From the NCBI GenBank assembly GCA_049975485.1, contig JBNGDC010000005.1:25928-89927 (forward strand): a DNA stretch of 64,000 nt, given 5' to 3'. Each line of letters opens with the position of its first letter. Positions within the stretch are counted from its first letter, which is position 1. This DNA comes from Phycisphaerae bacterium. GTDB taxonomy: Bacteria > Planctomycetota > Phycisphaerae > SM23-33. The notes under the pieces were generated by a model. It was not told the origin of the DNA, ran no database searches, and was given only the letters and a program-made list of their open reading frames with translations. Shown here piece after piece: positions 13,956-54,278 of the stretch. The position numbers and the translations under genes are program-made.

Positions 13956-15025
13956 GACAATATCTGCTCCGCGTGCTGCAGCACTTCCAGGGCGCCGTCG
14001 TCGTTGTCGCCGCGACGGTGAAGCCGGGCCTCCAGCAGCAGTGAATCCACCGTCGGACGACACTCGTTGACCTCCCGGCAAAGCTCAAGCGCCCGATCGT
14101 CCTCGCCGAGGCGATACAGGGCGTTGGCGGCCAGGTGCTTCAGATCGTTCGTTTCCTCCGCCGTAGTCATCAATTGCTCATAAAGCCGTACGGCCTGTCG
14201 CCAGTTTCCCTCCCTTTCCAGGCGGCGGGCCAGAGCCAGACCGTCGGCGGGCGAGTCCGGTTGTGCAGGTGCGAGGACAGCCGAGACGTCCTCCAGTCCC
14301 GACCACGGCCTGGGCGGTTGCTTGGCGCGGACTACGTCGGCAAACCGATCGGCCGTCCGGTCGGCTTCGTTGTCGGTCGATTCGGTCAGTTCGCCGGTGA
14401 CGTCTTCGAGCGAGACAAAGTCGGTGTAGAATGCCAGTCGTCGGGCGAAGTCCCATTGAGAGGCGGGGCTTGGCAATTCCGCGTCGAATGTTCCGGACTG
14501 GTCCAGCAGGTCGCGGTGGTGGCACAGAGCGGGCAGCTCCACGCAGGGGGTTCTGAAGAGGCAATCTCTTACGGGCGCCCAGGCGGGAGGGAGGCGTTTT
14601 TCCAGTGTCAGCCCGTCTCTGCGGCGGACGCGGTACAGGCGACTGACGGCGGCCCGACGGTCCGGAGCATCGGCCATCGCTTCCAACAGGCACTCCAGAT
14701 GGTAGGGGTACCAGGCGCAGTGGGGCGTGAGGTAGGCAATGAAACGGCCGCGGGCGCATGCCAGTGCCGCATTGCGTGCCTCGGCGTCTGAGGCGCCCTC
14801 GCGGACGGGGACGAGCGATACGCGGTCGTCATCGGCGGCCTCGGCGTCGGCCGATGCGGAGGCGTCGCCGGCCAGCAGCACCTCAAAGTACGTATGGGTC
14901 TGGCGCAGTGCCGAGCGCAGGGCCCTGGTCAGGTTGTCCCCGTCGCCTGCGAGTATCACGCTTACAAGGTTGCCGGAACTCATCGCTGTTCTGTCGCTCT
15001 TGTCGCCTGGTTTCGTTGTCGGCAC
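13943..15025 (-). CDS. GT2-like glycosyltransferase fold fused to C-terminal TPRs; canonical DxD motif absent
   Basis: 360 aa. VSVILAGDGDNLTRALRSALRQTHTYFEVLLAGDASA...ARNAALACARGRFIAYLTPHCAWYPYHL follows the GT-A/GT2 layout, but TPHC stands where DxD/DSDD is expected. The C-terminus is TPR-like. Confidence 0.6.
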   Translation of the reverse strand: MPTTKPGDKSDRTAMSSGNLVSVILAGDGDNLTRALRSALRQTHTYFEVLLAGDASASADAEAADDDRVSLVPVREGASDAEARNAALACARGRFIAYLTPHCAWYPYHLECLLEAMADAPDRRAAVSRLYRVRRRDGLTLEKRLPPAWAPVRDCLFRTPCVELPALCHHRDLLDQSGTFDAELPSPASQWDFARRLAFYTDFVSLEDVTGELTESTDNEADRTADRFADVVRAKQPPRPWSGLEDVSAVLAPAQPDSPADGLALARRLEREGNWRQAVRLYEQLMTTAEETNDLKHLAANALYRLGEDDRALELCREVNECRPTVDSLLLEARLHRRGDNDDGALEVLQHAEQILSWKG

Positions 15026-15097
15026 GGGGCCGCGACAAGCTTGACCGCCGGCCCCCGGCGCGGAGACCGACCGTCGAGTGTGCAGGATGCAATTGAC

Positions 15098-15113
15098 GTG
15101 CCTGCACCTTTTA
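15098..15113 (-). promoter_or_regulatory. Sigma-54 (-24/-12) promoter upstream of the GT2-like/TPR/FliT-like trio
   Basis: Minus strand AGGCACGTCAATTGCA compared with TGGCACG-N4-TTGCW. GG-to-GC spacing is correct. It lies 73 nt upstream of the ATG at 15025. Confidence 0.6.
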
Positions 15114-23890: not shown

Positions 23891-25048
23891 CTATGCGGTC
23901 GCGCCGACGGGTGCTTCGGCCGGCTCCGGCTGTTGTTCCTGCTTGTCCGACTTCTGTCGGCGTTCGGCCTCGTTGGTGTAGCGGACCAGTTCGTCCACCT
24001 CCGGCTCGCTCAGGCCCACCAGCTCCAGCGCGATGTCGGCCTCGCCGTCGTTGCCCGGCGAGAGGATGCGGCGGACCCTTCCGAAGCCCTGGATGGTCTT
24101 GTCCTGTTCCATCTGCATTACCACGAGCACGCGCTCCCCGACCCTCGCGGAGACAGGCCCGCGCAGACGCAGCCCGCATCCGGCGATCTCGGTCATGCGG
24201 CAGGGGACGAACTGCGGGGCCGTGAGCTGACCCGTCGTCGCGAACGGGTAGGCGGACGCCAGCGCCGCCTTGTCCGTCGGCACGCGACGGAAGCGGCGCC
24301 GGTTGATATATCGTGCCCGCTCCATGTGACTGAGGCGAATCTTGCCGTTGCTATGCTCCGAGACGGTCGCGTCGAATTCCCAGACCTTGCCCTCGCGCGA
24401 GTAACGAACCAGCCAGGACTCCCCGGGCTTGCACTCCACCGGTACGGTGGGGCTTACCAGCAGGTCCGAGGGGTCCGCGTGGTCCACCACGGCGTCAAAG
24501 CCGCTGGCCTTGCCGCGATGGATAATCGAAAGCTTCGCGCCGGGGATTATCTTCCGGCTGACGCCCTCGGACTCCACGGCCGAGTCCATCGACTGGCAGA
24601 AGCCCAGCTTCTCGCGGATCCGTTCGCATGTGGCCAGCAGCTCGTTGCGCTCGGCCTGAGGCCGGGACATGAAACGCTTGTCGGTCTGGATTGCGTTGAT
24701 GGCGTAGTCGAAGGTCGGCTCGCTGGTGAAGATAACCTCGGGTTTCTTCACGCGGGCCACCGCACACAGAAGCTTCAATACCTGTCGCTCCCTGTCGCTC
24801 AACCCGGTCTGCCCGCAGAGCCCCTGGAAGGCCCGCCAGGCGCGTTTTTTGCGCTCGGCGCGGTAGTAGAGCAGCGACACTACCGTCAGCAGCACCAGCC
24901 CCCCGGCCGCCAGCGCCAGCCCCCAGGCCCACCAGCTGCCGGCGGGTGTGGACATGTCCCGCAGTGCGTTGAGCCGATCGCTCGGGCTTAGCTGGGCCCG
25001 CAGGACGCCGCCTATCGCCGAGAGGTCATATGCGAACATCGGTATCAA
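23891..25048 (-). CDS. Membrane-anchored YcgR-like PilZ-domain protein
   Basis: 385 aa. One TM helix (WWAWGLALAAGGLVLLTVVSLLYY), a PilZN-like beta domain, then the RxxxR motif INRRRFRRV. The second PilZ motif is degenerate (TEIAGCG where D/NxSxxG is expected). Confidence 0.65.
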   Translation of the reverse strand: MIPMFAYDLSAIGGVLRAQLSPSDRLNALRDMSTPAGSWWAWGLALAAGGLVLLTVVSLLYYRAERKKRAWRAFQGLCGQTGLSDRERQVLKLLCAVARVKKPEVIFTSEPTFDYAINAIQTDKRFMSRPQAERNELLATCERIREKLGFCQSMDSAVESEGVSRKIIPGAKLSIIHRGKASGFDAVVDHADPSDLLVSPTVPVECKPGESWLVRYSREGKVWEFDATVSEHSNGKIRLSHMERARYINRRRFRRVPTDKAALASAYPFATTGQLTAPQFVPCRMTEIAGCGLRLRGPVSARVGERVLVVMQMEQDKTIQGFGRVRRILSPGNDGEADIALELVGLSEPEVDELVRYTNEAERRQKSDKQEQQPEPAEAPVGATA

Positions 25049-27491: not shown

Positions 27492-29201
27492 CTATATCCA
27501 CACGTTGATGACGTCGTCGCTGATTTGCGCGCTCTGCGGGGTATCGACGGATACTGTCGTCTCCGCCGCCGGCTCGGCTTCCGGCTCGGCAGGCCCGGCC
27601 GTGCCGGAATAACCCCGCTCACCGGTCTGCGCCTGCGAATTGCCGAAGTCCGACAGTTGCGAGTTTGCCGACCCGCCGCCGTTGTCCGCGAGGTTCAGGT
27701 CCATCCGGCGAAGCTGCACGCCGGAATCACTCAACCGGCTCATAAGTGCCGGCAGTTCTCTTTGAAGCTCTCCCAGTGTGCGGGGATTGCTGACCTCCAG
27801 CGTTCCGCGAAGCTGCTGGCCGTCCGACTCGAACGTGATCCTCACGCTGCCCAGCTCCGGAGGGTTCAGTCGGATGGTCAACTGCCGACCCGCGCGGGCC
27901 TGACCGGCGTTGACGGTCTCGGCCACGGTGTCCGCTACCTGTGAGGCGGGTGTGCGTGGCCCGGCGGGGATGGTTCCGGCCTGCGTTGCCTGGCTCTGTC
28001 CGGAAACCGGCTGGGCTTCCGACGCGACCTGGGTAACCGGCTGGGGCTGCCCGGTCTGATCGCCTTCCCGACCCCTGCCTGAGACCCTTATCTGCGCCTC
28101 CGGACCTGCGGCTTCCCGAAGTGCGGTTTGGAATTTCTCGGCCGCGGCGGCGCCTTGCCGGCCGTTCTCGGCCCCATTCTGGGAGGTCTGGCCGGTCTGG
28201 TCGCCGACCGCCTGCCGCAGCTCGCCGGTGTTTCTGGTTGCCGTCTGCGCGGCGTTCCGCAACTGCTGGTTCGTATTATCCGCGGTTTGGGAGTCCTGCA
28301 CTGCCTCGGCCGCCCGGACTACGCGCGCCGGTTCACTGCCGGCGGGTCTCGGCTCCACGGCCGCGGAGGTTTGCTCGGACTGCCGTACCTGCTCGCCGGA
28401 CTCGCCCACAACAGAGACGCGCTGCCGGGCGGATTCGCCGCCGGCGCCGGACTCGCCGGTCAACTGCTGCCGGTTGAGTTGACCGGGGGCCCGCTCGACC
28501 TGTGTACCGCCGGTCGCGGCCTTGCTTTCTGTGGCGCCATCGGCTTTGCCCGCGGCTACGGCATCCGCTGATACCTTCCCGGCGACGCGGACGGCAGCGT
28601 CGGCTTGTGCGGCCTGCTGGGGTACCTTCACACCGGCCTGCATCTGGACGCCGGCTGCATCTGTTGGCTTGGCCTTACCGTCGGCGACGGCACCGGCGGG
28701 CACTATCAGCATCAGCTTGCCGCCATTACCTTGGGCGGCTTCTCCCTCGTCGGAGCCGTTGCCCGCGGGCTGGGGGATGACCACCTCCACAACCTGCCCC
28801 TCGGCCGGGGCTTCGGTCTGCCCTGCGACGGCCTGGATTGACGCACCTTCGGGCAGTTCGACCGCGCCGCCGGCGGCAAGCATCTCCAGAATCGCAGCGA
28901 AGGACGGTCGGACCGCGTTCTTGCCTTCGTTCGATTTGCCTTCGTCGTCTTTGGACTGCCCGATACGCCGCCGCTCACTGACTACAGCGCCTTTCCGGCT
29001 GGTCTCACGGCCACGGGTATCAGACATATCAGTAGAGGCGCGCTGCTCGGCCGTCGTCTGGCTCTCCTGGCTCTGCGCCTGCGTCTGTGCCAGACCCGTA
29101 AGCAGCCCGTCGCTTTGGGCGGGGTCGGGCTTGTCCATCATGCGCGGCCTTGGGGCCTGCGGTATCAACAGGTCTGCAATCTGTATGGCTGTAGTGCCCA
29201 T
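27492..29201 (-). CDS. fliK: Hook-length control protein
   Basis: Start MGTTAIQIADLL (SD AAAGGA). Long Q/A/G-rich low-complexity middle. C-terminal Flg_hook domain RLNPPELGSVRITFESDGQQLRGTLEVSNP. Confidence 0.8.
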   Translation of the reverse strand: MGTTAIQIADLLIPQAPRPRMMDKPDPAQSDGLLTGLAQTQAQSQESQTTAEQRASTDMSDTRGRETSRKGAVVSERRRIGQSKDDEGKSNEGKNAVRPSFAAILEMLAAGGAVELPEGASIQAVAGQTEAPAEGQVVEVVIPQPAGNGSDEGEAAQGNGGKLMLIVPAGAVADGKAKPTDAAGVQMQAGVKVPQQAAQADAAVRVAGKVSADAVAAGKADGATESKAATGGTQVERAPGQLNRQQLTGESGAGGESARQRVSVVGESGEQVRQSEQTSAAVEPRPAGSEPARVVRAAEAVQDSQTADNTNQQLRNAAQTATRNTGELRQAVGDQTGQTSQNGAENGRQGAAAAEKFQTALREAAGPEAQIRVSGRGREGDQTGQPQPVTQVASEAQPVSGQSQATQAGTIPAGPRTPASQVADTVAETVNAGQARAGRQLTIRLNPPELGSVRITFESDGQQLRGTLEVSNPRTLGELQRELPALMSRLSDSGVQLRRMDLNLADNGGGSANSQLSDFGNSQAQTGERGYSGTAGPAEPEAEPAAETTVSVDTPQSAQISDDVINVWI

Positions 29202-29230
29202 GGGGCGGTCCTTTCGCGGGCAGGCATCTG

Positions 29231-29247
29231 TGCAAGAAGCGTGCCGG
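29231..29247 (-). promoter_or_regulatory. Sigma-54 promoter of the fliK-to-flgL unit
   Basis: Minus strand CCGGCACGCTTCTTGCA, with correct GG-N10-GC spacing. The -12 element is ~30 nt upstream of the fliK ATG. Confidence 0.65.
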
Positions 29248-29939
29248 AAACGGCAATACGACAACATAAATATCGTAAGACCTTATTCAGACCGCACTTG
29301 AACGGCGAGGATCCGGCATGGGGCCGTCGCGTGCCAGACCGGAACTACGGAGCGGACCAGGAAGAAACTTCCGTGCATGGGGAACAAAACTCCGCCCCCG
29401 TGTACCCTCAGACCTGCGGATTTCAGGCCGGCTGCCTGTGGGGCTGCGCCGCCCGCCTGCGCACAAGAAAAGTTGTTTTAGTCACTTGCGATGTTTGCGG
29501 CCGACCTGTATCTTCCTGCACCAACAGCCCGCTTGACGGCAAAGGAACACACGCATTTTGTGCGGTATGCGGGCGGGCGTTACCGGCAAGGAGGCCGATA
29601 AGCCATTATCTGTTCAGGGCCGACTGGAATGGAATCCACCGCCGGCGACTTTCACAACACAGTGTACAGCAGCGGCCGGTGTCGGCGGTCACTCCCCGCC
29701 GGGACGGGCCGTCGTCGCCTGCCGTTGAAGCGGTTTCCGGGGGTCCGCGGAACCGTCGAGACGCCTCCAGGGGGCGGAAGTTCCCATCTTGGGCTAATCC
29801 TTCCCGGATACTTTGGCCGAATAGGTATGCGTATCGGGGCTTACGTTCCCGCCGACCGGCGGGGGGCCTCGAGCGCGCGCGGGCGGCATGCCGCGCGGGT
29901 CACCTCATTGTGTCTCTGTATTTGGTCGTGAGGAATGAC

Positions 29940-31406
29940 ATGGAAGTCCGGCTCGAGCGGTCTATGCAGAGCGTTGTGGTGCTGGGGCAGGTCGCGTCGG
30001 ACATGGACGGTCTCTGCAGCCGCCTCAGGCAGGCAGCGGCGCAGGTGGCCGTCGCCGACGACGTGGACGACGCGGTCCGCAAGGCCTGCGCACTTGATGC
30101 GCAGCTCGTACTGGTCCATGAGGGTCTGGGCAAGCGGCGGGCGCTGAGAGCGATAAAGGAAGTCGCCTCGGAGTCGCCCCAGACGGCGGTGGTGGTGGTC
30201 TCCGACCGTCCGGGCGTTGACTCGGCGGTGAGTTTCGTCCGGGCCGGCGCATATGATTACGTCCCCGGACCGCTGGACGACGGCCGGCTCGAAGCGCTAC
30301 TGGAAGGCCTGGACGAGGAGTTCCTCCAATCCGCCAGCGGCGAGGACCACTACCTTTGTCCGGAAGCTCCGCCGGAACTGGCGATCGTCGGACGCAGCGA
30401 GGGGATAACGAACGCCCTGCAGACCATACGGCGTGTGGCCCACAGCCGATGCAATCCGGTCCTGATAATGGGAGAGACCGGTACCGGTAAGGAGCTGGCC
30501 GCCCGTGCCGTACACGCCTGGCGCTGCGGCGAGGATGAGCCGTTCGTGGCCGTCAACTGTGCCGCGCTTACCGCCAACCTGCTGGAGAGCGAGCTGTTCG
30601 GACATGTCCGCGGGGCCTTCACCGGGGCGGATAAGGATAAGACCGGACTGTTCGAGCTGGCCGGCGAGGGCGTGATCCTGCTGGACGAGATATCGGAGAT
30701 GCCTGTGGCGCTTCAGGCGAAGCTGCTGCGCGTACTCCAGGAGCACAGCTTCCGCAAAGTAGGCGGCACAAAGGACATAAAGTTTGAGGGCACCGTGATC
30801 GCCTCCAGCAACCGCGACTTGCCGCAGGAGGTGGACAAAGGCCGCTTCCGTCGCGACCTGTACTATCGACTGGCGGTGTTCCCCATCACGCTGCCGCCGC
30901 TCCGCGAGCCCAGCCGGCGCGACGACGTTGAGTTGCTGGCAGAGTACTTCCTGCGGACTTCGACAATCGCCGGTGAGCACAGCATCCGCGAACTGACGCC
31001 CGGCGCAATCGAGAAGCTGCGTGCCCACCATTGGCCGGGTAACGTCCGCGAATTGCGCAACGTCATCGAGCGCGGTTTGCTGCTGGAGACATCCGACAAG
31101 CTTACGCCGGCGAGCTTGCACGTGGGTGGGGAGTCGAAAACATCCAGCCCGGCCGCCGAAGCCAAGGCCAACAACCCCGACGACTTCTCGCTGGAAACGG
31201 CAGAACGGGAGTTCATCCTGCGGGCGCTTCGCGAGACGGGCTGGCAGCGGACGCGGGCGGCCGCCCTGCTGGGCATCACCCGCGCGACGCTGCACGCCAA
31301 GCTCAAGCGCTACGACATCAAACCCCCGGACAGCGGAAGTACGAGCGCTTCGGCCTCCTCCTCGAATCGTTCCGGCGAGACTCGAAAGCTCCAAGGCGTC
31401 AAATAG
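29940..31406 (+). CDS. Sigma-54-dependent transcriptional activator with a pseudo-receiver domain (FleQ/FlrA-like)
   Basis: 488 aa from MEVRLERS (SD GAGGA 5 nt upstream). AAA+ Walker A GETGTGKELAARAVH, GAFTGA loop, C-terminal Fis-type HTH AAALLGITRATLHAKLKRY. In the REC-like N-terminus, His stands at the phospho-Asp position (LVLVHEG), GQ replaces the acidic pair and Gly replaces the conserved Lys. Confidence 0.85.
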   Translation: MEVRLERSMQSVVVLGQVASDMDGLCSRLRQAAAQVAVADDVDDAVRKACALDAQLVLVHEGLGKRRALRAIKEVASESPQTAVVVVSDRPGVDSAVSFVRAGAYDYVPGPLDDGRLEALLEGLDEEFLQSASGEDHYLCPEAPPELAIVGRSEGITNALQTIRRVAHSRCNPVLIMGETGTGKELAARAVHAWRCGEDEPFVAVNCAALTANLLESELFGHVRGAFTGADKDKTGLFELAGEGVILLDEISEMPVALQAKLLRVLQEHSFRKVGGTKDIKFEGTVIASSNRDLPQEVDKGRFRRDLYYRLAVFPITLPPLREPSRRDDVELLAEYFLRTSTIAGEHSIRELTPGAIEKLRAHHWPGNVRELRNVIERGLLLETSDKLTPASLHVGGESKTSSPAAEAKANNPDDFSLETAEREFILRALRETGWQRTRAAALLGITRATLHAKLKRYDIKPPDSGSTSASASSSNRSGETRKLQGVK

Positions 31407-31454
31407 GGACAGTCACCTATTTTTGCTGTGTAAAATAGGTGACTGTCCCTATTT
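31401..31454. repeat. REP-like perfect palindrome (left)
   Basis: AAATAGGGACAGTCACCTATTTT-TGCTGTGT-AAAATAGGTGACTGTCCCTATTT. The TAG stop of the upstream activator lies inside the left arm. Confidence 0.9.
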
Positions 31455-31501
31455 AATTACGGGCTTGACACTGGGTGTAATGGGACCATAAATGGTTGCT
31501 C

Positions 31502-32176
31502 ATGCCTAGAGTAGCAAGAGTTGTCATTCCGGGCTGTCCGCATCATGTTACTCAGCGGGGCAATAATCGGCAGGACGTGTTCTTCACCGACGACGACCGC
31601 CGCGCATATCTCGAAATTCTCCGCGAGCAGTGTGAACGCTTCGGTTTGGGCGTCCAGGCGTACTGCCTGATGACCAATCACATTCATCTGGTGGCTACAC
31701 CTGCGACAGGGGAATCCTTGGCCAAAGCCGTCGGACGGACGAACTGGCGCTACGCCCAGCATGTCAATAGGTGGCATGCCCGAAGCGGCCACTTGTGGCA
31801 GAATCGATTCTATTCGTGTCCGTTGGATGAGCAGCACTTCTGGACAGCCGTGACGTATGTCGAGCGCAACCCGGTACGCGCGGGAGTTGTGCGGGTTGCC
31901 TGGGAATATGCGTGGTCGAGTGCAGGCGCCCATGTGGGTGGTAGCGATCGGAGTGGGCTGCTGGATATCGCACAGTGGCGCGAATGGTTGCCCCGCGCCG
32001 GCGACTGGCGAGAAGCGCTGGGCAGACCCGGGGAGGCGGGGAGAGTTGAGCAACTCCGTGGTGCGACTATAGCGGGGCGACCGCTGGGCAGCGATGATTT
32101 CATTGCCAAGCTTGAAACAGCTATTGGACGTCGCCTGCGACGACTACCGGTTGGTCGCCCCAAAAGACGCAACTAA
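31502..32176 (+). CDS. REP-associated tyrosine transposase (IS200/IS605-like Y1, RayT/TnpA-REP type)
   Basis: MPRVARVVIPGCPHHVTQRGNNRQDVFF, the HUH motif in NHIHLV, and the catalytic Tyr context YVERNPVRAG. A TTGACA -35-like hexamer lies at 31465-31470. Confidence 0.85.
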   Translation: MPRVARVVIPGCPHHVTQRGNNRQDVFFTDDDRRAYLEILREQCERFGLGVQAYCLMTNHIHLVATPATGESLAKAVGRTNWRYAQHVNRWHARSGHLWQNRFYSCPLDEQHFWTAVTYVERNPVRAGVVRVAWEYAWSSAGAHVGGSDRSGLLDIAQWREWLPRAGDWREALGRPGEAGRVEQLRGATIAGRPLGSDDFIAKLETAIGRRLRRLPVGRPKRRN

Positions 32177-32230
32177 AATAGGGACAGTCACCTATTTTCC
32201 ACAGCAAAAATAGGTGACTGTCCCTATTTT
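32175..32230. repeat. REP-like perfect palindrome (right, inverted relative to left)
   Basis: AAAATAGGGACAGTCACCTATTTT-CCACAGCA-AAAATAGGTGACTGTCCCTATTTT. The loop is the reverse complement of the left loop apart from one base. Confidence 0.9.
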
Positions 32231-32373
32231 AGCCAGTGTGTGAAAAGCAAACGTCGCGCGCATAAACTCCTGACATCCCGACAGCGGGCCGGAGTTGCCG
32301 CCTTGGGGGTGCTCTTTCGTTAGACATTATTACACAGGGTCTTAGGCGCTGGGGCCGGCGCGGGATTTCAGTG

Positions 32374-32389
32374 TGGCACATCACTTGCA
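32374..32389 (+). promoter_or_regulatory. Sigma-54 promoter (consensus-perfect) of the long plus-strand flagellar unit
   Basis: TGGCACATCACTTGCA. Confidence 0.7.
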
Positions 32390-32470
32390 ACCAGAATTGC
32401 GGCGCGGGCCGTGCGCGGTGACCGCAGCCAGGCCCTTCGTAACGCCTCGGACGGACTGCCGGGGCAGGCA

Positions 32471-35167
32471 ATGCGAATCGACGGATCGATGGCAGAGACG
32501 GAGAATCCAAACACGGATCAGCCCCAGGGCGACGAGCCGGTCGAGCAGCCCGGCGACCAGGCCGACCCCGTCCAGGCGGACGAACCACAGGCCGGCGACC
32601 CGGCTGCCCCGGAGCAGGCCGACCAGACGCCGTCCGGTGGCGCAGACGATGCGCCGCAGGACGACGCGGCTCCTGCTGCCGAAGCCGACGACGCCACGGC
32701 CGAAGCTGCGCAGGACTCCCAACACGGACAGCAGGACGAGTCCGACGCAGCTTCCGGTCGGACGGCTGAGCCGCCGGCCGGGGAGCAGGCACCACCGGCG
32801 CCTGCCGCAGAGCAGACGGCGCCACCGTCGAATCAGCCGTCGGAAACCGCCGCTCAACCGCCGGATGCCTCCGTCGGTTTCGATACCTCGGCTTTTCTTG
32901 AGGAACACGAAACCCCGTGGCACAAGCGCGTCCCGCTGGTTCCTCTGTTGCTGGGTTTCAACACACTTGTCGTCTGCTTCCTGCTGGCGGTTATCGTCTT
33001 TGTGGTTACCGGAGGCCCGAAGACACCGCACGAGGCCTCCGCCTACACTTCCGACGAGTCGGCCGTGGTCAGCAGACCGGAACGTGACGGCGACGAATCT
33101 CCCATTGAGCCGCCCCGGGTGGAACCGCAGGCCTGGCAGAAGGCCGAGCGGGCGTTCAGGAACCAGGATTTTTCCGAGGCCCTGGGCTACTACGGCCACT
33201 TGCTGGATGCGGCGCAGGGTCGTCCGGTGGATGCGTTCGTGGTGGACTATCTGCGTCTGCGCAGCGGCGATTGCCTCATCCGGCTCGGTCGCAGCGACGA
33301 GGGCCGCGAGCTGCTCGAGCGCGTCAGCAGCAGCGGTTCGCCGATAGTGCGGGCCGTCTCAAACTATTTGCTGGCCGAGCTGGAGCTCAGAACGGAACGA
33401 TACCCGGCCGCCCGGCGGCGGGCTTACACGGCCATCGCGGCTTTGGGCGCGCTTGAGCGGGATATGCCGCTGGAGCGTGACTGCGACTACCTTATCGCGC
33501 GGGCGCTGACGGAAAGCGCCATGCGGTTCTTCAACCCCGACGAGCCGATTCCCTGGTCCGGATACAATGCCTCGGATCCCTTCACCGGCCTGGACGACTC
33601 CGCCTTGCGTCGCCTGCTGCACGATGGCGCCGAACGGATGGCCGAGTCGGTCCTTGGCCCGGAGGTCTCTCCCGCCCGGCGAACGGATGCGGCGCGGTTC
33701 TGGTCGGTAAGCTGCTGGCAGGCGACGCTGGAAGAAGTCCTCTACAGGTTTGCATCGGCCTGCGAAATGGACGTTCACTGGGCGTCGGCCGCCCCTCCCG
33801 TCCGTCAGAGAGGCATATCGCTGGCGTTCCGGGAGGTCGGCGAGCACCGCCTGTTCGAGGTGGCCTGCGGAATGGCCGGTCTGGTGGCGCGTTTCAATCG
33901 CGACGAGGTGGAAATATACGACGCCGACGCCATCAGCTCCCTGTCGGACAAGCGGGAGCTTCTCAAGGCCGAGGCCGTCTCCGTGTGGCGGCGGTTCTTC
34001 CTGCGGGCATCGGACGACCATCGTCTGCCGGTGGGGCACTTCGCGCTCGGGCGGCTCTACGAGTGTGCCGGAGAAACCGCCGACAGCATGCGCGAGTACC
34101 GGCTTACGGCCGGTCGCTTTCCACGTCACGAGCTGGCGCCGCGAGCTTTGTTGCGGAAGGCCCAGATACAGATATCTCTACGCGACTACACCGGCGCCCG
34201 CAACGATCTGCTGGACCTGCTGGATCTGTATCCGGACTACCCGGCCGTTGCGGACGTGTACCTCTATCTCGGGCGCAGCGCGCTGAAAACCGGGCTGTGG
34301 GACGAGGCGATCCGCACCTTCCGGAAACTCTACTACCTGGAGTTGTCCAAGGCCTCGCGACTGGAGGCGTGCCGGGGGGTGGCAAGGAGTTTCTTCGAGA
34401 AGGGCAACTACAGCGAGTCCCGCAATTGGTACGAGCGATACTTCCAGCAACTTGACGACCAGTCCGGAGAGGCGCCGGCCGAGGCGTTCCACACCTGGGG
34501 ACGCTGCGAATCGGCGTTGGGCAATCTCGACAGGGCGGCGGCGGCCTACCGCCTGGCTTTGGGGGCCGGTGGTCCGTCGGAGCTGCGCGCCCGCGCGTCG
34601 TTGGACCTGGCGGATGTCGAGCTGCAGAGGCAGAACTTCGTCGGCGCCCTGGGGCTGCTGAACGAACTGGATCCCACTTTGCTCGACGAGCAGCAGAACT
34701 ATGACCGCCTGAGGCTGCAGGCAAGGGCGCTTCGCGAGATGGGGTTGCCGTTGCGTGCCCGACGGATGCTTTCGCGTCACATGCCGGAGGTCTCCGACGC
34801 CCACCAGCGGGCCATGCTGGCTGTTGAGACCGCCAAATGCCTGGTGGACGAAGAAAAGGGCGACGAGGCCCGTGATGTGCTGGTCGGGGCACTTGGCGAG
34901 ATGACCCCCTGTGCGGAAAGCTACGAAGCCGCACTGTATCTCGCAAATCTGTGCCTTCAGGACGAGCGTTATCGCCAGGCCGCCGAGGTCGCAGAGACCT
35001 TGGTGAACAGCTCCGCCGGCGAACACATCCGCCGTCAGGCGCAGGAGCTTCTGGGCATGGCTCGCGCGTGCCAGCGGGACTACGGCGCCGCGGCGGAGGC
35101 ATTCTCGATGGACGACGATGAGTTCTCCACCGACGTGCCGGACGACGGCGAGGAGACCATGCCATGA
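32471..35167 (+). CDS. Large single-pass membrane TPR protein with an acidic/Pro-rich N-terminal tail and a possible STN-like insert
   Basis: ORF 32411..35167. I list the first ATG (MRIDGS), which lies downstream of the predicted TSS; the start is uncertain. About 130 aa of D/E/P/Q/A low complexity, then the TM helix VPLVPLLLGFNTLVVCFLLAVIVFVV, then many TPR-like helices. Residues encoded around 33710-33930 (ATLEEVLYRFASACEMDVHWAS...GLVARFNRDEVEIY) resemble a secretin/TonB N-terminal (STN) module. Confidence 0.7.
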   Translation: MRIDGSMAETENPNTDQPQGDEPVEQPGDQADPVQADEPQAGDPAAPEQADQTPSGGADDAPQDDAAPAAEADDATAEAAQDSQHGQQDESDAASGRTAEPPAGEQAPPAPAAEQTAPPSNQPSETAAQPPDASVGFDTSAFLEEHETPWHKRVPLVPLLLGFNTLVVCFLLAVIVFVVTGGPKTPHEASAYTSDESAVVSRPERDGDESPIEPPRVEPQAWQKAERAFRNQDFSEALGYYGHLLDAAQGRPVDAFVVDYLRLRSGDCLIRLGRSDEGRELLERVSSSGSPIVRAVSNYLLAELELRTERYPAARRRAYTAIAALGALERDMPLERDCDYLIARALTESAMRFFNPDEPIPWSGYNASDPFTGLDDSALRRLLHDGAERMAESVLGPEVSPARRTDAARFWSVSCWQATLEEVLYRFASACEMDVHWASAAPPVRQRGISLAFREVGEHRLFEVACGMAGLVARFNRDEVEIYDADAISSLSDKRELLKAEAVSVWRRFFLRASDDHRLPVGHFALGRLYECAGETADSMREYRLTAGRFPRHELAPRALLRKAQIQISLRDYTGARNDLLDLLDLYPDYPAVADVYLYLGRSALKTGLWDEAIRTFRKLYYLELSKASRLEACRGVARSFFEKGNYSESRNWYERYFQQLDDQSGEAPAEAFHTWGRCESALGNLDRAAAAYRLALGAGGPSELRARASLDLADVELQRQNFVGALGLLNELDPTLLDEQQNYDRLRLQARALREMGLPLRARRMLSRHMPEVSDAHQRAMLAVETAKCLVDEEKGDEARDVLVGALGEMTPCAESYEAALYLANLCLQDERYRQAAEVAETLVNSSAGEHIRRQAQELLGMARACQRDYGAAAEAFSMDDDEFSTDVPDDGEETMP

Positions 35168-35892
35168 ACCTGCGTGCATTGATCACATCGTCGGCGATTG
35201 TGTTGCTGACCGCGGCGTCCGGGCCGGCCGCGCCGGACGGGCAGCCCGCCGAGCGGGAGCCGCTGGACACCGAGTTGCATGAGCTTATCGAGACTGTCAG
35301 CGGCACCGCGCAGCAGCTCTGGCGCGAGAGCATAGAGGCCCCGCCGCAAGTTGACGGTTCGCGGCTGTCAGAAATGGTCGGCGAAATTCAGCTTCTACGT
35401 CTGGACCCAGAGGACGCGCTCAATCGGAGCCGGCAGACACAGGAGCCCGTGGCTTCCTCCCGGGAGCCGACGACCCGTCCCACTGCCGAAGAGCGGCCCG
35501 GCGACGGCCGCAGAGAGCAAGTAGCAGAGGAGGTGCTTGCGCAGTTGCAGGCCTCGGCTCCCAGAGACCCGGCCAGGGCGACGCAACTGGCGGACACGCT
35601 CTTTGCCGACGAGCACTACGAAGCTGCCTACGCGCTGTACGAGGCGGTCCTTGAGCATGAGACCTCCGAACAGCGGGCCTCTTGGCTGGTGTTCCAGATG
35701 GCCAACTGCAGGAAGTACAGTGACCCCGAAACCGCCCGGCAGCTCTATCTGCAACTTATTGAGCAGTACCCCAACAGCAGGTGGGTTGAGGCGGCCAGGG
35801 TGCAGGAGAAGATCATCCACTGGCAGCAGGTAAACGAGCCGCGGGCCGTGCTGCGGCAGGCCCGTGGAAACACCCGCAGAGACACTGATTAA
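35164..35892 (+). CDS. Secreted protein with a C-terminal TPR/YbgF-like region
   Basis: 242 aa. ATGA overlap with the upstream gene. Signal peptide MNLRALITSSAIVLLTAASGPAAP. ADTLFADEHYEAAYALYEAVLEH...LIEQYPNSRWVEAARV. Confidence 0.65.
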   Translation: MNLRALITSSAIVLLTAASGPAAPDGQPAEREPLDTELHELIETVSGTAQQLWRESIEAPPQVDGSRLSEMVGEIQLLRLDPEDALNRSRQTQEPVASSREPTTRPTAEERPGDGRREQVAEEVLAQLQASAPRDPARATQLADTLFADEHYEAAYALYEAVLEHETSEQRASWLVFQMANCRKYSDPETARQLYLQLIEQYPNSRWVEAARVQEKIIHWQQVNEPRAVLRQARGNTRRDTD

Positions 35893-35926
35893 GCGTCACC
35901 ATATGCCCGGCAGAGACAAGACAGAT

Positions 35927-37306
35927 ATGTCCGAGCGAGTCCATCAGAACGTTCTGGTTGTGCACCGGCAGTGCGAAACGACGCGGCTGGTGCTGGAGCG
36001 ACTGGCGGCACGGGGTCTGCGCGGCGCGGTGGAGGCCGACGCGTCGGTGGCTGCGGATAAGGTGGCTCAGGGCAGGTGGGACCTGGTGCTGGTCGCTCCC
36101 GAGGCCGTCGGCGAGAAGGCATTCGACCTGCTTTCCGGCGTCAAGGAGAGCTTCCCCGAATTGCCGGTGGTGATGCTGGGCAAACGCGACGACACGCACC
36201 TTGCCGTTCGCGCCTTGCGCAACGGCTGCGACGACTATCTCATCGAGCCGGCGACCAGCGAAGCCATTGAGGACATGCTGGACTCGCTGCTTCCCAGTCA
36301 TGCCGTCAGCAACGCTGCGGCTGCCGAGGATGGTAACCGCCGGCTCCTGCAGATAGCCGGTCGCAGCGACGCGCTGCGGCGGACGCTGGAGCTGGCGCGC
36401 AAGGTCGCGCCGACTTCAATACCCGTGCTCATCACCGGCGAAAGCGGCACGGGCAAGGAACTGGTGTCGTACTTCGTGCATCGTCAAAGCCAGCGGCGCC
36501 GCGGGCCGTATATACGCGTAAACTGTGCGGCCGTTACCGAGTCGCTGCTGGAGAGCGAGCTGTTCGGTCACGAGCGGGGCGCGTTCACGGGAGCATACTC
36601 CCAGCGCAAGGGTCGTTTCGAACGGGCGCACGGCGGGACGCTGCTTCTGGATGAGATTTCCGAGACCACTCCCCGGCTGCAGGCGGAGCTTCTACGGGTC
36701 CTGGAGCAACAGGACTTCGAGCGCGTCGGAGGGACCGAGCCGGTCTGCGTGAACGTACGGGTTATCAGCACCTCCAACCGCGAGCTGTCCGCCGAGACGC
36801 GCGCCGGGCGGTTCCGGCACGATCTGTTCTACCGTCTCAGCGGCGTACACCTTGTGGTGCCTCCCCTGAGGCAGCGCCCGGAGGATATTCCCGTTCTGAC
36901 GTGGCATTTTGTGAATCTTTACGCCCACGAAGTCCGGCGCTGCATACGCGAGCTGGACGAGCAGATGCTGAAGCTGTTCGAGCAATACAGTTGGCCCGGC
37001 AATGTTCGCCAGCTCCGCAACGTGGTGCGAACGGCGCTGGTGCTGGGCGAGGGTGAGACGCTCTCGCTGGACGGCGCGCCCTGGCTGGCGGCGGAGATGA
37101 GGCGCTGCGACTCTCCGAACCTGGACGCAGAGAGCCTGCGTCTGCAGGAGCTGGAAAGGCAGGCGATCTTTGAGGCCTTGCGGCGGACCAAACGCAACCA
37201 GACCAAGGCCGCCCGCCTGCTGGGCATAACCGACCGCACGTTGAGGGAAAAACTCAGGCGATACAGGCAGGACGGATACGCCGTTCCCACCGGAGGCGGC
37301 AAATGA
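35927..37306 (+). CDS. Second sigma-54-dependent activator with a pseudo-receiver domain
   Basis: About 459 aa from MSERVHQNVLVV (an alternative ATG lies at 35903). GESGTGKELVSYFVH, GAFTGA, HTH AARLLGITDRTLREKLRRY. All REC phosphorylation residues are replaced: HR for DD, Ala for the phospho-Asp in WDLVLVAPE, Gly for Thr, Glu for Lys. Confidence 0.85.
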   Translation: MSERVHQNVLVVHRQCETTRLVLERLAARGLRGAVEADASVAADKVAQGRWDLVLVAPEAVGEKAFDLLSGVKESFPELPVVMLGKRDDTHLAVRALRNGCDDYLIEPATSEAIEDMLDSLLPSHAVSNAAAAEDGNRRLLQIAGRSDALRRTLELARKVAPTSIPVLITGESGTGKELVSYFVHRQSQRRRGPYIRVNCAAVTESLLESELFGHERGAFTGAYSQRKGRFERAHGGTLLLDEISETTPRLQAELLRVLEQQDFERVGGTEPVCVNVRVISTSNRELSAETRAGRFRHDLFYRLSGVHLVVPPLRQRPEDIPVLTWHFVNLYAHEVRRCIRELDEQMLKLFEQYSWPGNVRQLRNVVRTALVLGEGETLSLDGAPWLAAEMRRCDSPNLDAESLRLQELERQAIFEALRRTKRNQTKAARLLGITDRTLREKLRRYRQDGYAVPTGGGK

Positions 37307-44824: not shown

Positions 44825-45490
44825 ATGATTCCCCGTCGCAGGAAAAAGACCAACGACGACTCAGCCCCCGGCTGCGGGTGGATGGTTACGTTCAGCGACT
44901 GCATGACGCTGCTGTTGTGCTTTTTTGTCATGCTGCTGACGTTCTCGGCATTCGACGAGAACCGTCTGGCCCAGTTCATGGGCGGGCTGAAGCTGATGGA
45001 CTACAACTCGCTGTTCCCGCCGGACGATACGCTGGTCAGTTCCATGGTTCCACCGCCGCCGCAGGAGGTGGACCGGACCCCCGAGGGAAGCGAAACACCG
45101 ACGGATGAGTTCCTGGAGGTGCTGGAGAATCCCCAGAAGTCGAGGGATCTGACCGACCCCGGGGCTTTCAGCGACCATAAGGTGTTTTACCTGCCGTCGA
45201 GCGAGATCTTCTGGGCGCAGGGCAGCGGCCTTACGCCCGGCGGGCGAGGCAAGCTGTCGCTGATAGCGGAGATGATGAAGCTCGTCCCCTCGCGCGTGGT
45301 GGTCCGCGAGATTGGTTCCGACGGGCGGACTCGCAGCGACGAGGCCGGTCTTGAAAGATGCAACGCTGTTGTTGATTTCTTCGCACGGCAGAGAGTCAGG
45401 CGGGACCTTCTGTTCGTCTCGGCCGACAGCTCGCCGGCGAAGCAGTCTGGCTGTATCGAAATATCGCTGTTGAAGCACGAGGAACGCTGA
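44825..45490 (+). CDS. motB: MotB paralog 1 (plug/TM with conserved Asp; degenerate OmpA-like domain)
   Basis: 221 aa. GCGWMVTFSDCMTLLLCFFVMLL. The C-terminal OmpA-like fold is present, but the LSxxRA peptidoglycan motif is poor (GLERCNAV). Confidence 0.8.
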   Translation: MIPRRRKKTNDDSAPGCGWMVTFSDCMTLLLCFFVMLLTFSAFDENRLAQFMGGLKLMDYNSLFPPDDTLVSSMVPPPPQEVDRTPEGSETPTDEFLEVLENPQKSRDLTDPGAFSDHKVFYLPSSEIFWAQGSGLTPGGRGKLSLIAEMMKLVPSRVVVREIGSDGRTRSDEAGLERCNAVVDFFARQRVRRDLLFVSADSSPAKQSGCIEISLLKHEER

Positions 45491-46245
45491 TGGCCGGCAG
45501 AGAGAGACAAAGCCGTCCGGACGACGATAATTCCAACGATACCCCCAGTTGGATTGTGTCATGGACGGATATGGTCACCCTGCTGCTGTCGTTCTTTGTG
45601 ATGCTACAGAGCATGGCCGTGGAAAAAAGCGACATGCTGTTCCAGATTGGCTGCGGGTCCTTCCTGCGGGCAGTGTCCGGATTCGGCATACCTGACTGGG
45701 TGTACGGCCACGAACCGCCGATGCCGAGCCGGCAATACAAGCGTGTCAGACACCCCATGGAGAGGCGCGAGGAGGCGCGCAGGGACAGGGTCATCGACGC
45801 CGAGGCCGAGCGGATCCGCGAGCTGTTTGTCCAGCTCCGCAACCAGGTCAAGACGGAGGCAAACGACCTGTCGGAAAGACCTTTGCGCTACGACGCCCTG
45901 GACGTGCGTTTTGCGGCCGGCGAGAGCGAAGCGGACGAAGCCCAACGCGAGTCGTTGCTCGATTACGCCGATACCCTCAAAAGGAATCTTGCGGGACGTC
46001 GAATTAACATATACGTGGTGGGTTTGGCGCCTGAGGTGACCGCATCCGGTGAGCGGGCGGTGGTTTCGGCGCGTCGCGCGCTGTCTGCCGCGAACGTACT
46101 GGGTCAGGCGCTGGCGGCCGAAACGGCCGGCGGACTCTGGGAGCTGCACTCCTGGGGAGCCGTGGACGGCTCCGGGTTGTGCCGCCGGGCCGGCGTCTCC
46201 GCGGGTGGGACGCAGCTCGTGGTGATGATTACGGAAGCGAAGTAG
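45490..46245 (+). CDS. motB: MotB paralog 2 (conserved Asp; better OmpA-like motif)
   Basis: 251 aa. TPSWIVSWTDMVTLLLSFFVMLQ. The C-terminus VRFAAGESE...INIYVVG...VSARRALSAANVL. Start overlaps the stop of paralog 1 (TGATG). Confidence 0.75.
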   Translation: MAGRERQSRPDDDNSNDTPSWIVSWTDMVTLLLSFFVMLQSMAVEKSDMLFQIGCGSFLRAVSGFGIPDWVYGHEPPMPSRQYKRVRHPMERREEARRDRVIDAEAERIRELFVQLRNQVKTEANDLSERPLRYDALDVRFAAGESEADEAQRESLLDYADTLKRNLAGRRINIYVVGLAPEVTASGERAVVSARRALSAANVLGQALAAETAGGLWELHSWGAVDGSGLCRRAGVSAGGTQLVVMITEAK

Positions 46246-48356: not shown

Positions 48357-48372
48357 TGGCACGTCGTATGCA
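48357..48372 (+). promoter_or_regulatory. Sigma-54 promoter upstream of fliO-fliPQR-flhBA-fliA
   Basis: TGGCACGTCGTATGCA (one mismatch at -14). It lies 48 nt upstream of the fliO ATG, in a 208-bp AT-enriched gap. Confidence 0.6.
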
Positions 48373-51886: not shown

Positions 51887-54012
51887 GTGAAGAGACCCAA
51901 CAACTCGGAACGTACCTGCTGGACCGGTCGAACAGCCGGCTGACGCGCATGCTGGCCCACAACGACATCATGTTCGCCATCGGGCTGGGCATGGTGCTGG
52001 CCACGCTGTTGATACCGCTGCCCACGTTCATGCTGGACATGATGCTGTCCATCAGCATCGCGGTCGCGGTCGCCACGATGGTGGTGGTGCTGAGTACCGA
52101 GGAACCCATCCAGTTCTCGGCGTTTCCTTCGCTTCTGCTGTTCGTGACGCTGTTCCGCCTGTCGCTGAACGTGGCATCAACGCGCCTGATACTGCTGCAG
52201 GGCGACGCCGGCAGGATCATCGCCACGTTCGGGCACTTTGTGGTCGGCGGCAACATGGTCATCGGACTGGTGGTGTTCCTGATCCTGGTGATCATCCAGT
52301 TCGTGGTCATCACCAAGGGCGCCGAGCGCATCAGCGAGGTGGCCGCCCGCTTCAACCTCGACGCCATGCCGGGCAAGCAGATGGCCATCGACGCCGACCT
52401 CAACGCCGGGCTTATCGGCGAGAGGGACGCCAAGTATCGACGCGAGAAGATCGTCGCCGAAAGCGAGTTCTACGGCTCCATGGACGGTGCCAGCAAGTTC
52501 ATCCGCGGCGACGCCATCGCCGGTCTGGTGATAACGGCCGTCAACCTTATCGGCGGCTTCCTCATCGGCATCACCCGCGGCATGACACCGGCCGAGTCCG
52601 TCTCGACGTACTCCATACTCGCCGTCGGCGACGGTCTGGTAACGCAGATACCCGCCATCGTCATTGCGACCTCGGCGGGCTTCCTCATCAGCAAATCCTC
52701 CAGCCACCAGAGCTTGAGCCAGGAGCTGGTGCGGCAGTTCCTCGCGCGGAGCCGCCCGTTGGGTGTGGCGGCGTTCCTATTTGCGGCCATGGTGTTCGTG
52801 CCGAATTTCCCCAAGGTTCCCTTCGTCGTCCTGGCGCTGGGGACGGGGTTGCTGTCGCGGGCGCTTGCCCGACTGGAGCAGCAGTCCCGCCAGGCCGCCC
52901 GCAAGAGCGAGCAGAAGGAAGAATCCGAGGAGCAGCCGGTCGAAGAACTGCTGGACGTGGACACACTGTCCGTCCAGGTGGGACCGCGGCTGATACAGAC
53001 CGTGGACCCGCGGCGGAAGGGCAGCTTATCGCAGCGCATCAAGCCGCTGCGGCGTAAATTCGCCGAGCAGTACGGCATCGTCCTGCCGCTGGTGCGGCTG
53101 CGTGACAACGTTTCGCTGGACCCGAACGTCTATCAGATACGCCTGTACAACCACGTGGTCGCGGAGGGTCGGCTGGAGCCGGACAAGTTGCTGGCGATGG
53201 ACCCCGGAACCGTGCAGAAGCGCGTGGACGGACAGGCCGCCGAAGAGCCTGTCTTCAACCTGCCGGCTTTGTGGATCTCCAGGGACAAGAAGGACGAGGC
53301 CGAGATGGCCGGCTATACCGTCGTGGACCCCGAGACGGTGATGGTTACCCACCTGTCCGAGACGCTGCGCCGGCACGCCCACGAGCTGCTCAGTCGCGAC
53401 GACGTGCAGCAACTGGTGGACCGCCTGCGGGCGAAGCAGCCCGCCCTGGTGGATACGGTCGTCGGCGACCTGGTTCCGCTGGGCCTGCTGCACCGCGTGT
53501 TGCAGCGTCTGTTGGCCGACGGCATCCCCATCCGCGACCTCAAGCAGATACTCGAGACGCTCGGCGACCACGCCGCCCAGACAAAGGATCCCGTCGCGCT
53601 TACCGAGCGGGTTCGCAAGGCCATCGCGCGTGCCATTACCGAGCAGCACCGCAACGCGCAGGGCTGCCTGGAGGCGATTACGCTCGACACATCACTGGAG
53701 TACGACCTTCGCAGCAAGGCCTCCCAGGACGCCGACGGACTGTCGGTGGACCCCAACCGTGCGTTGGCGCTTATCCAGCGTATCGCCGATGTGTGGAAAG
53801 AGGCGATGGCCGCCGGACACGACAAGGTTGTTCTGCTGTGTGATTCACGCATTCGGCCGCACCTGGCGGCCATGCTCAGCCGCCAGATACCCCAGCTTCC
53901 GGTACTGGCGTACGACGAGATTGAGACCGGCAGCAACGTTCAGACCGTGGGAACGGTAACGCTTGAGACAGAGGCGACGGCAAGCGCGGCTTCGCTGAAG
54001 GCGAGCAACTGA
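51883..54012 (+). CDS. flhA: Export gate protein FlhA
   Basis: 709 aa. FVVGGNMVIGLVVFLILVIIQFVVITKGAERISEVAARFNLDAMPGKQMAIDADL. Confidence 0.95.
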   Translation: MSEETQQLGTYLLDRSNSRLTRMLAHNDIMFAIGLGMVLATLLIPLPTFMLDMMLSISIAVAVATMVVVLSTEEPIQFSAFPSLLLFVTLFRLSLNVASTRLILLQGDAGRIIATFGHFVVGGNMVIGLVVFLILVIIQFVVITKGAERISEVAARFNLDAMPGKQMAIDADLNAGLIGERDAKYRREKIVAESEFYGSMDGASKFIRGDAIAGLVITAVNLIGGFLIGITRGMTPAESVSTYSILAVGDGLVTQIPAIVIATSAGFLISKSSSHQSLSQELVRQFLARSRPLGVAAFLFAAMVFVPNFPKVPFVVLALGTGLLSRALARLEQQSRQAARKSEQKEESEEQPVEELLDVDTLSVQVGPRLIQTVDPRRKGSLSQRIKPLRRKFAEQYGIVLPLVRLRDNVSLDPNVYQIRLYNHVVAEGRLEPDKLLAMDPGTVQKRVDGQAAEEPVFNLPALWISRDKKDEAEMAGYTVVDPETVMVTHLSETLRRHAHELLSRDDVQQLVDRLRAKQPALVDTVVGDLVPLGLLHRVLQRLLADGIPIRDLKQILETLGDHAAQTKDPVALTERVRKAIARAITEQHRNAQGCLEAITLDTSLEYDLRSKASQDADGLSVDPNRALALIQRIADVWKEAMAAGHDKVVLLCDSRIRPHLAAMLSRQIPQLPVLAYDEIETGSNVQTVGTVTLETEATASAASLKASN

Positions 54013-54041
54013 GGCGCTGCCGTTACAGATGACGGAGAGAC

Positions 54042-54278
54042 GTGAGACAGGCATCGGTCATCATGGCGGTCATCGGCTTTTTCGTGGTGGCCTTCGTGGG
54101 CACGGTCAGCGGCGTGCCGGCGCACGTGTGCAGTCTGCGAGCACTGGCCGGCGCCGCGGTGATGTACGTGTTGACCCGCTTCTGTGGCCAGGTGGTCGTA
54201 CGTGTGGTGGCCGACGCCGCGGTCCGCAGCATGAACCTGCAACAGCAAAAGGGCGCCAGTGACAACAGCAGAGAGTAA
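54042..54278 (+). CDS. Small two-TM membrane protein, unknown function
   Basis: 78 aa (GTG start; an alternative ATG lies at 54063). VIMAVIGFFVVAFVGTVSGV and LAGAAVMYVLTRFCGQVVV. It overlaps the fliA start by 20 nt and sits where flhF/flhG are often found. Confidence 0.4.
   Translation: MRQASVIMAVIGFFVVAFVGTVSGVPAHVCSLRALAGAAVMYVLTRFCGQVVVRVVADAAVRSMNLQQQKGASDNSRE

Follow-up and report, generated by a model that had tools for sequence, protein, structure and literature searches.

Two sigma-54 enhancer-binding proteins, EBP1 and EBP2, are encoded in the flagellar supercluster on contig JBNGDC010000005.1 of a Phycisphaerae bacterium (assembly GCA_049975485.1). Both have an N-terminal receiver domain that is catalytically dead with its fold kept, and these two paralogous activators probably form the core of regulation in a two-tier sigma-54 flagellar cascade that needs no kinase and is followed by a sigma-28 step. 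The genomic view is a stretch of 64 kb (the window) together with pieces of about 20 kb from related genomes. EBP1 would be transcribed from a sigma-54-independent promoter and, as top-tier activator, would act through a GCATAAAATCCTGAC box on the sigma-54 promoter at 32374, the products of which would be two periplasmic tetratricopeptide repeat (TPR) proteins, EBP2, FlgBC, FliEFGHIJ, MotAB and FliLMN. EBP2, alone or with EBP1, would then act on the divergent fliK-flgDE...flgKL operon (rod, hook and ring) through CGGAAG-N4-CTTCCG dyads, and the sigma-28 factor FliA would direct flagellin as the last step. The activity of both activators would be set by their abundance, which is to say by the transcriptional cascade itself, and possibly also by a partner or ligand. 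We infer the order of these steps from where the genes lie and from the two distinct boxes conserved upstream of the promoters, and likewise infer which activator drives which promoter and what the input would be.

The original prediction, made by eye from the sequence, was of two activators here with intact AAA+ modules and Fis-type helix-turn-helix (HTH) domains, which was borne out by the Pfam domains and by location of the motifs (Table 1). The Sigma54_activat domain is matched with E = 1.7e-63 in EBP1 and 8.2e-65 in EBP2, AAA_lid_14 and HTH_8 are present in both, and the Walker A, GAFTGA, Walker B, R-finger and sensor II motifs are intact, such that both have the domain and the motifs by which bacterial enhancer-binding proteins are recognised. 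GAFTGA is kept in 120 of 120 EBP2 orthologs and 101 of 114 EBP1 orthologs.

The match of the N-terminal domains to Response_reg in Pfam is weak, at 34.3 bits for EBP1, above the cut-off of 30.2, and 24.2 bits for EBP2, below it. AlphaFold2 models, which cover the N-terminal domains only, are (beta-alpha)5 in both (pLDDT 85 for EBP1 and 78 for EBP2), and with these models Foldseek matched only receiver domains, with target-normalised template modelling (TM) scores of 0.7-0.9. The active site residues were placed by HMMER alignments to the solved receivers NtrX, NtrC, MtrA, CheY, and FleR, with MtrA, CheY, and FleR used for EBP2, and by MAFFT alignment with CheY and NtrC; they are numbered here as in CheY, as D12/D13, D57, T87, Y106, and K109. 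In EBP1 these positions are G16-Q17, H60, S88, Y107, and G110, and in EBP2 they are H13-R14, A57, G85, Y104, and E107, all at the ends of beta1, beta3, beta4, and beta5 in the two models. The residues previously read by eye at the acidic pair, the phospho-acceptor and the Lys are therefore those found by alignment, and there is no phospho-acceptor Asp in either protein. That every phosphorylation residue is lacking holds for EBP2, and for the acidic pair, Asp and Lys of EBP1, but EBP1 has retained S88 at the Thr position and the aromatic switch Tyr. The fold is thus that of a canonical response regulator, and neither protein has the catalytic quintet of D12, D13, D57, T/S87, and K109; both N-terminal domains fit the definition of a pseudo-receiver, or aspartate-less receiver. 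By analogy with FleQ and other pseudo-receivers (PMC12632262), they most likely serve in dimerisation or regulation.

No sensor kinase had been noticed in the cluster, and indeed none of the called genes of the window has a HisKA, HATPase_c, or Hpt domain in a Pfam scan, nor is there a kinase in the 10 kb around the orthologous module on three contigs from relatives (L001, L002, and L011). The adjacent cognate kinase of a canonical two-component regulator is therefore missing from all of these regions. It is also missing beside the module in the relatives with the most complete EBP2 site, P0011 (DDD-G-K) and P0043 (NDD-S-K), which bears on whether an orphan kinase or small phosphodonor from elsewhere in the genome controls EBP2 or EBP1 at a non-canonical residue. 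The genome beyond the window could hold such a gene, and most EBP2 orthologs keep the Asp and Lys, with about 10% keeping D13, D57, S/T87, and K109 together. As the Asp, the metal-binding pair and the Lys are gone from both window proteins, and as the EBP2 family has had at least 16 separate losses of the Asp, control of this kind is very unlikely.

The distribution of these losses differs between the two families. EBP1 and EBP2 each have well over a hundred orthologs of 50-90% identity, nearly all from metagenomes of Phycisphaerae/Planctomycetota and often on the same contigs, from which sets of 120 were taken for each protein (117 for the EBP1 site counts). The names of these homologs and the nearest genome contig likewise assign the window, from a metagenome-assembled genome, to Phycisphaerae. 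In the EBP1 family, the D12 position is Gly in 88 of 117 and the K109 position is Gly or Ala in 101 and Lys in none, while the D57 position is Arg, Leu, Asp, Cys, or others, with Asp in only 13. The active site loops are the least conserved parts of this domain, and alpha4, beta5, the GPLD loop between beta5 and alpha5, and the linker RFFCxxCPPGV are the most conserved. EBP1 is a member of an old pseudo-receiver family. The EBP2 family keeps the Asp in 98 of 120 and Lys or Arg in 98, with Asp at the second acidic position in 33 (Asp or Glu in 40) and the Thr/Ser position kept in 37; all five catalytic residues are present in a single ortholog. A neighbour-joining tree of the 120 EBP2 orthologs calls for at least 16 losses of the Asp and at least 12 of the Lys, and the window with its three closest relatives, which have A or G at the Asp position and E at the Lys position, represents one such loss. 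The loss of the Asp from EBP2 here is the recent, lineage-specific end point of a family-wide decay.

In both families the linker that leads into the AAA+ domain is conserved and contains Cys, as FFCxxCPPGV in EBP1 and RCLY in EBP2. In the window the key Cys is absent from each, being Ala in EBP1 (APPEL, 30354-30380) and Arg in EBP2 (RRLL, 36329-36343). The idea that EBP2 lost its Asp and its linker Cys in a coupled manner was considered and set aside, the association being weak (counts 80/18/13/9, not corrected for phylogeny).

Purifying selection still acts on both dead receiver domains. Against the nearest relative, at 89% identity, the ratio of nonsynonymous to synonymous substitution rates (dN/dS) is 0.13 for the receiver domain of EBP1 and 0.14 for that of EBP2, compared to 0.05-0.06 for the AAA+ domains and 0.09-0.10 for the whole proteins. 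These values, together with two full-length open reading frames (ORFs), the intact ATPase and sigma-54 contact motifs, flagellar genes that are all intact in the window, and the same EBP2 state in four close relatives at 82-89% identity, already disfavour the reading that one or both activators are losing function in a cluster that is heading for inactivation. The changes in this lineage at otherwise conserved residues (the EBP2 Asp and Lys, and the linker Cys of both proteins) and the insertion of a transposase element between EBP1 and the next promoter could be taken as signs of such decay, but it is the least credible of the explanations considered.

Sigma-54 motifs are not enriched across the window, with seven matches against five expected, yet four of the seven fall within the 2% of positions that are intergenic and no more than 150 nt upstream of a gene on the same strand (binomial P = 5e-6). 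There are thus four intergenic sites with at most one mismatch that could be targets of enhancer-binding proteins: the perfect site at 32374 (TGGCACATCACTTGC) and three sites with one mismatch, 19-64 nt before fliK, fliO, and a glycosyltransferase-TPR gene. The 32374 type of promoter is present, with at most one mismatch, between the EBP1 stop codon and the TPR gene in seven related loci (L001, L004, L005, L006, L007, L008, and L009), and the position of the fliK-type promoter is conserved in six (L001, L004, L005, L006, L008, and L009). Downstream of 32374, the overlaps of stop and start codons between TPR918 and TPR242, and between EBP2 and flgB (ATGA at 37303), tie EBP2, by translational coupling, into the operon that starts at this promoter, as had been proposed, and this arrangement holds across the relatives.

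The lack of a sigma-54 promoter for EBP1 was likewise upheld, since there is no site with two or fewer mismatches upstream of the gene on its strand, nor is there one before EBP1 in the related loci. The non-coding region 5' of EBP1 is long in all relatives, at about 540-790 nt (29268-29939 in the window); it has no Rfam match, and a scan of the whole window, with the 700 nt before EBP1 included, found no known RNA. There is no sigma-70 consensus in 29200-32500. A sigma-28 promoter for EBP1 was also considered and rejected, as there is a lone GCCGATAA octamer at 29594 that has no -35 element. A sigma-28-type promoter, TCAAG...CCGATAA, is found at 57499-57525, some 155 nt before the gene for flagellin, and the cluster includes fliA.

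Two different boxes are found upstream of the two promoters that flank EBP1. A GCATAAAATCCTGAC box is 102-114 nt upstream of the TPR-EBP2 promoter in six of seven loci, and its representative at 32260, GCATAAACTCCTGAC, is the only match in the window with at most one mismatch. A CGGAAG-N3-5-CTTCCG dyad, often doubled, is at -118 to -148 from the fliK promoter in seven of seven loci and is absent from the TPR promoter regions. Scans for GG-N10-GC and for dyads with three mismatches were too permissive to use. The presence of two distinct boxes at enhancer distance is as would be predicted for two activators that differ in DNA specificity.

Another way of reading the same arrangement is that EBP1 alone fires the EBP2 operon and that the sigma-54 promoters used later depend on rings in which EBP1 and EBP2 are mixed, and not on EBP2 by itself, as for FleQ and FleT in Rhodobacter (Cereibacter) sphaeroides. 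The layout matches the FleQ-activated operon of that species, which starts with the second activator and goes on to fliEFGHIJ (PMC7277832), and EBP1 and EBP2 are paralogs of 38% identity that have identical GAFTGA and AAA+ motifs and are always found together. FleT, however, is an AAA+ domain only (PMC3162934), while EBP2 has its own N-terminal and HTH domains and could bind DNA by itself, and the different boxes at the two promoters fit separate binding specificities equally well. A hetero-oligomer is thus possible by analogy, but rather doubtful.

It is also conceivable, by analogy with FliX and FlbD of Caulobacter crescentus, that EBP2 is subject to a partner-switch or assembly checkpoint, in which the dead receiver is the surface where a protein that signals the finished early structure would dock. 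The best NCBIfam match of EBP2 is FlbD (NF050807, 360 bits, with 300.6 bits for EBP1), which itself has a divergent receiver and no kinase and is governed by FliX (PMC3096577, PMC3930126), although these scores are far below the equivalog cut-off of 750. EBP2 is co-transcribed with early structural genes, and in its family the alpha1, beta2, and alpha4-beta5 surfaces and the linker are conserved while the active site loops are not. There is no match to the FliX family of Pfam among the window genes, in a search of ORFs of 80 aa and above, and the TPR proteins of the operon, being periplasmic and with a cytoplasmic tail in TPR918 that lacks conservation, make poor candidates for the role of direct partner. 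This explanation is therefore considered unlikely, and more so than the mixed rings.

The TPR genes occupy the place that the kinase genes fleS and flrB have elsewhere. Two TPR genes are always found between EBP1 and EBP2 (32471-35892 in the window, L001:6325-9998, and L011:6967-9970). Orthologs of TPR918 are at the same position in L001 and L011, where the proteins at the TPR242 position are 226-287 aa. In TPR918 the transmembrane segment and the periplasmic part are conserved, and the acidic, proline-rich cytoplasmic tail is not conserved and is absent in L011. The possibility that these proteins substitute for the kinase was rejected as far as direct regulation is concerned, TPR242 being secreted and the tail of TPR918 unconserved. 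They are more likely to be a periplasmic motor scaffold, and TPR918 may be a periplasmic flagellar scaffold specific to the class Phycisphaerae.

Several points weigh against a kinase-independent two-tier cascade. The fliO and glycosyltransferase promoters have neither upstream box, and the pairing of box with activator is a guess. In the box ahead of the 32374 promoter no clear dyad symmetry is seen, such that this box could instead be a second promoter or a site for some other factor. As 82% of EBP2 orthologs keep the Asp and Lys, function of the site, even by atypical phosphorylation, may persist in relatives. Finally, the genome was viewed over 64 kb, and rpoN, flhF/flhG, and orphan kinases may lie beyond it. 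In spite of these points, the two-tier cascade run by EBP1 and EBP2 is the favoured reading. A bolder version of it, which is tentative and on balance improbable, would have Phycisphaerae run their whole flagellar hierarchy on two kinase-less pseudo-receiver activators with a new input, either the Cys linkers as a redox or metal switch in most members or feedback from flagellar assembly. The EBP2 family, with its repeated losses of the Asp, would then be a natural series toward kinase independence, and the lineage in the window, which has neither the Asp nor the linker Cys, its fully uncoupled end state.

The setting of the module is conserved. The EBP1 and EBP2 genes are together, about 3.4-3.9 kb apart, in seven related loci or genomes. 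For the genome scan a broad EBP1 receiver profile proved too variable, and a narrower one returned seven loci, six of them assigned to Planctomycetota. Where genes were called, the order is the same, with fliK divergent from EBP1, followed by a TPR gene (about 770-940 aa), a small protein, EBP2, and then flgB, flgC, fliE, fliF, and onward. The window itself has a G+C content of 64% and begins on the left with dnaA and housekeeping genes. The near complete flagellar supercluster spans approximately 15.3-61.2 kb of it, with fliK-flgD-flgE-(unknown)-flgF-flgG-flgA-flgH-flgI-flgJ-flgN-flgK-flgL on the minus strand. On the plus strand are EBP1, a transposase element, TPR918, TPR242, EBP2, flgB, flgC, and fliE-F-G-H-I-J, and after fliJ there are motA, two motB-like genes, fliL-M-N, fliO-P-Q-R, flhB, flhA, fliA, flagellin, fliD, and fliS.

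The transposase element is specific to the window and is not at that place in L001, L004, or L011. Its gene, for a repetitive extragenic palindrome (REP)-associated tyrosine transposase, is flanked by two identical 48-bp hairpins (31404-31451 and 32179-32226), which are the only copies in the window and the first of which extends over the stop codon of EBP1. In L004, the nearest relative, there is no more than a degenerate half-copy. Due to this insertion the conserved region upstream of the 32374 promoter is about 0.7 kb farther from EBP1 than in the relatives.

Some other features of the region are of note. The two motB-like genes after motA are at 44825-46245. Between flhA and fliA (54012-54259), the usual place in polar flagellates, there is no flhF or flhG, and the Pfam scan found no FleN/FlhG gene of the MinD/ParA type there or anywhere in the window. 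Between flgE and flgF is a gene for an unknown 385-aa membrane protein (23891-25048, minus strand), which faintly matches the N-terminal domain of YcgR (E = 0.12) and in which the stretch RRRFRR...EIAGCG resembles the PilZ motifs for cyclic di-GMP (c-di-GMP); it could be a flagellar brake. A glycosyltransferase family 2-TPR gene and a TPR gene adjoin flgL (13311-15025, minus strand), apparently with their own sigma-54 promoter, and these may have a role in flagellin glycosylation. A PP2C/SpoIIE-type serine phosphatase gene (6814-7737, minus strand), about 8 kb to the left of the cluster, is the only signalling-type enzyme seen in the window.

Table 1. Coordinates of the two activators, the sigma-54 promoters and associated features in the 64-kb window
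Feature	Position	Strand	Remarks
EBP1, sigma-54 enhancer-binding protein, 488 aa	29940..31406	+	ATG 29940, stop 31406
EBP1 domains (Pfam)			pseudo-receiver residues 1-132, AAA+ 149-403, Fis-type HTH 417-458
EBP1 pseudo-receiver domain	29940..30335	+	codons G16-Q17 29985-29990, H60 30117-30119, S88 30201-30203, G110 30267-30269
EBP1 motifs		+	Walker A 30471-30494, GAFTGA 30612-30629, Walker B 30675-30692
EBP2, sigma-54 enhancer-binding protein, 459 aa (Pfam, NCBIfam)	35927..37306	+	ATG 35927, stop 37306
EBP2 domains			degenerate receiver residues 1-121, AAA+ 143-382, HTH 406-446
EBP2 dead receiver domain	35927..36289	+	codons H13-R14 35963-35968, A57 36095-36097, G85 36179-36181, E107 36245-36247
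EBP2 motifs		+	Walker A 36437-36460, GAFTGA 36578-36595
Sigma-54 promoter, perfect (TGGCAC-N5-TTGC), TGGCACATCACTTGC	32374..32388	+	heads operon TPR918-TPR242-EBP2-flgB-flgC-fliE-fliF...
Conserved upstream box GCATAAACTCCTGAC, candidate activator-binding site	32260..32274	+	at about -114 from the 32374 promoter
Sigma-54 promoter CGGCACGCTTCTTGC, one mismatch	29232..29246	-	divergent from EBP1; before fliK-flgD-flgE-...-flgL
Two CGGAAG-N3-5-CTTCCG dyads, candidate enhancer	29358..29394	-	at about -112 to -148 from the fliK sigma-54 promoter
Sigma-54 promoter-like site, one mismatch	48357..48371	+	19 nt before fliO-fliP-fliQ-fliR-flhB-flhA
Sigma-54 promoter-like site, one mismatch	15089..15103	-	64 nt before the glycosyltransferase-TPR gene that adjoins flgL
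TPR918, bitopic membrane protein with periplasmic TPR region (Pfam TPR families)	32471..35167	+	opens the EBP2 operon
TPR242, small secreted TPR-like protein with signal peptide	35164..35892	+	start overlaps the TPR918 stop
Transposase element	31404..32226	+	REP-associated tyrosine transposase gene 31496-32176

The principle of kinase-free sigma-54 control of flagellar genes is already known, and it is the implementation that is new here, in a different phylum, with a pseudo-receiver and an HTH in both tiers, two periplasmic TPR genes in the module, and two candidate enhancer motifs. No papers on flagellar gene control in Planctomycetota were found in the literature searched. The original prediction that the second tier has also lost phospho-control is true of this locus, but the loss is not unusual, given the kinase-free precedents (PMC7277832, PMC3096577). 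The locus would be a third phylogenetically independent case of a sigma-54 flagellar cascade without kinase control, which strengthens the view that the receivers of flagellar activators easily become phosphorylation-independent modules. It offers the class a testable wiring diagram of two activators, four sigma-54 promoters, two candidate enhancer motifs, and a sigma-28 tail. The EBP2 family, for its part, holds many independent intermediate states in which the escape of a response regulator from its kinase can be studied, this being an open question for pseudo-receivers according to a 2025 review (PMC12632262).

It had been suggested that the AAA+ domains might bind c-di-GMP as FleQ does. 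Neither protein matches the FleQ-type domain PF06490 at E <= 0.01, and the alignment to full-length FleQ (8p53) covers the AAA+ domain only. The pocket residues of FleQ are R144, R185, E330, and R334 (PMC10723142). At E330 and R334, in an ungapped alignment anchored on the motifs with the FleQ segment verified against the PDB, EBP1 has Y and T and EBP2 has H and L. At the presumed positions of R144 and R185, the same kind of ungapped alignment gives L and R in EBP1 and L and Y in EBP2. With one of the four residues kept in EBP1 and none in EBP2, the pocket is not conserved and c-di-GMP sensing of the FleQ type was rejected, binding at another site being possible.

In Pseudomonas (FleQ-FleSR) and Vibrio (FlrA-FlrBC), as here, a master enhancer-binding protein with a non-phosphorylated N-terminus is followed by a second one that directly precedes fliE-fliJ, and then by sigma-28 (PMC3930126, PMC10723142). 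The locus differs from these in that there is no FleS/FlrB kinase, its place being taken by the two periplasmic TPR genes, and no fleN/flhG in the cluster. In Caulobacter, FlbD has a divergent receiver without the key phosphorylation residues, has no cognate kinase, is active unphosphorylated, and is controlled by FliX (PMC3096577, PMC3930126). EBP2 is similarly a sigma-54 flagellar activator among early genes with a divergent receiver and no kinase found, but the top tier in Caulobacter is CtrA with the housekeeping sigma factor rather than a second sigma-54 activator, and no FliX was found in the window.

Like other bacterial pseudo-receivers (PMC12632262, PMC4395418), the two domains have the receiver fold without the catalytic residues and have conservation moved to the alpha4-beta5-alpha5 face. 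These two papers deal with a general class rather than with a flagellar system, and the EBP1 and EBP2 families are not among the examples discussed in the excerpts consulted.

The closest working analogue is the Fla1 system of R. sphaeroides, in which FleQ activates the fleT-fliEFGHIJ operon, FleQ with FleT activates class III, and FliA activates class IV, all without a kinase (PMC7277832). In both there are two sigma-54 activators and no kinase, the second activator heads a sigma-54 operon that runs on to fliEFGHIJ, and sigma-28 comes last. The differences are that EBP2, with its receiver-fold domain and HTH_8, is not an AAA+-only protein like FleT, which lacks N-terminal and DNA-binding domains (PMC3162934), and that the operon here includes two TPR genes and flgBC and is from the phylum Planctomycetota. 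By sequence, neither EBP1 nor EBP2 is closer to FleQ or to any flagellar activator than to ZraR, NifA, and NtrC1, and they belong to none of the known kinase-free families, although they would work as the activators of those families do.

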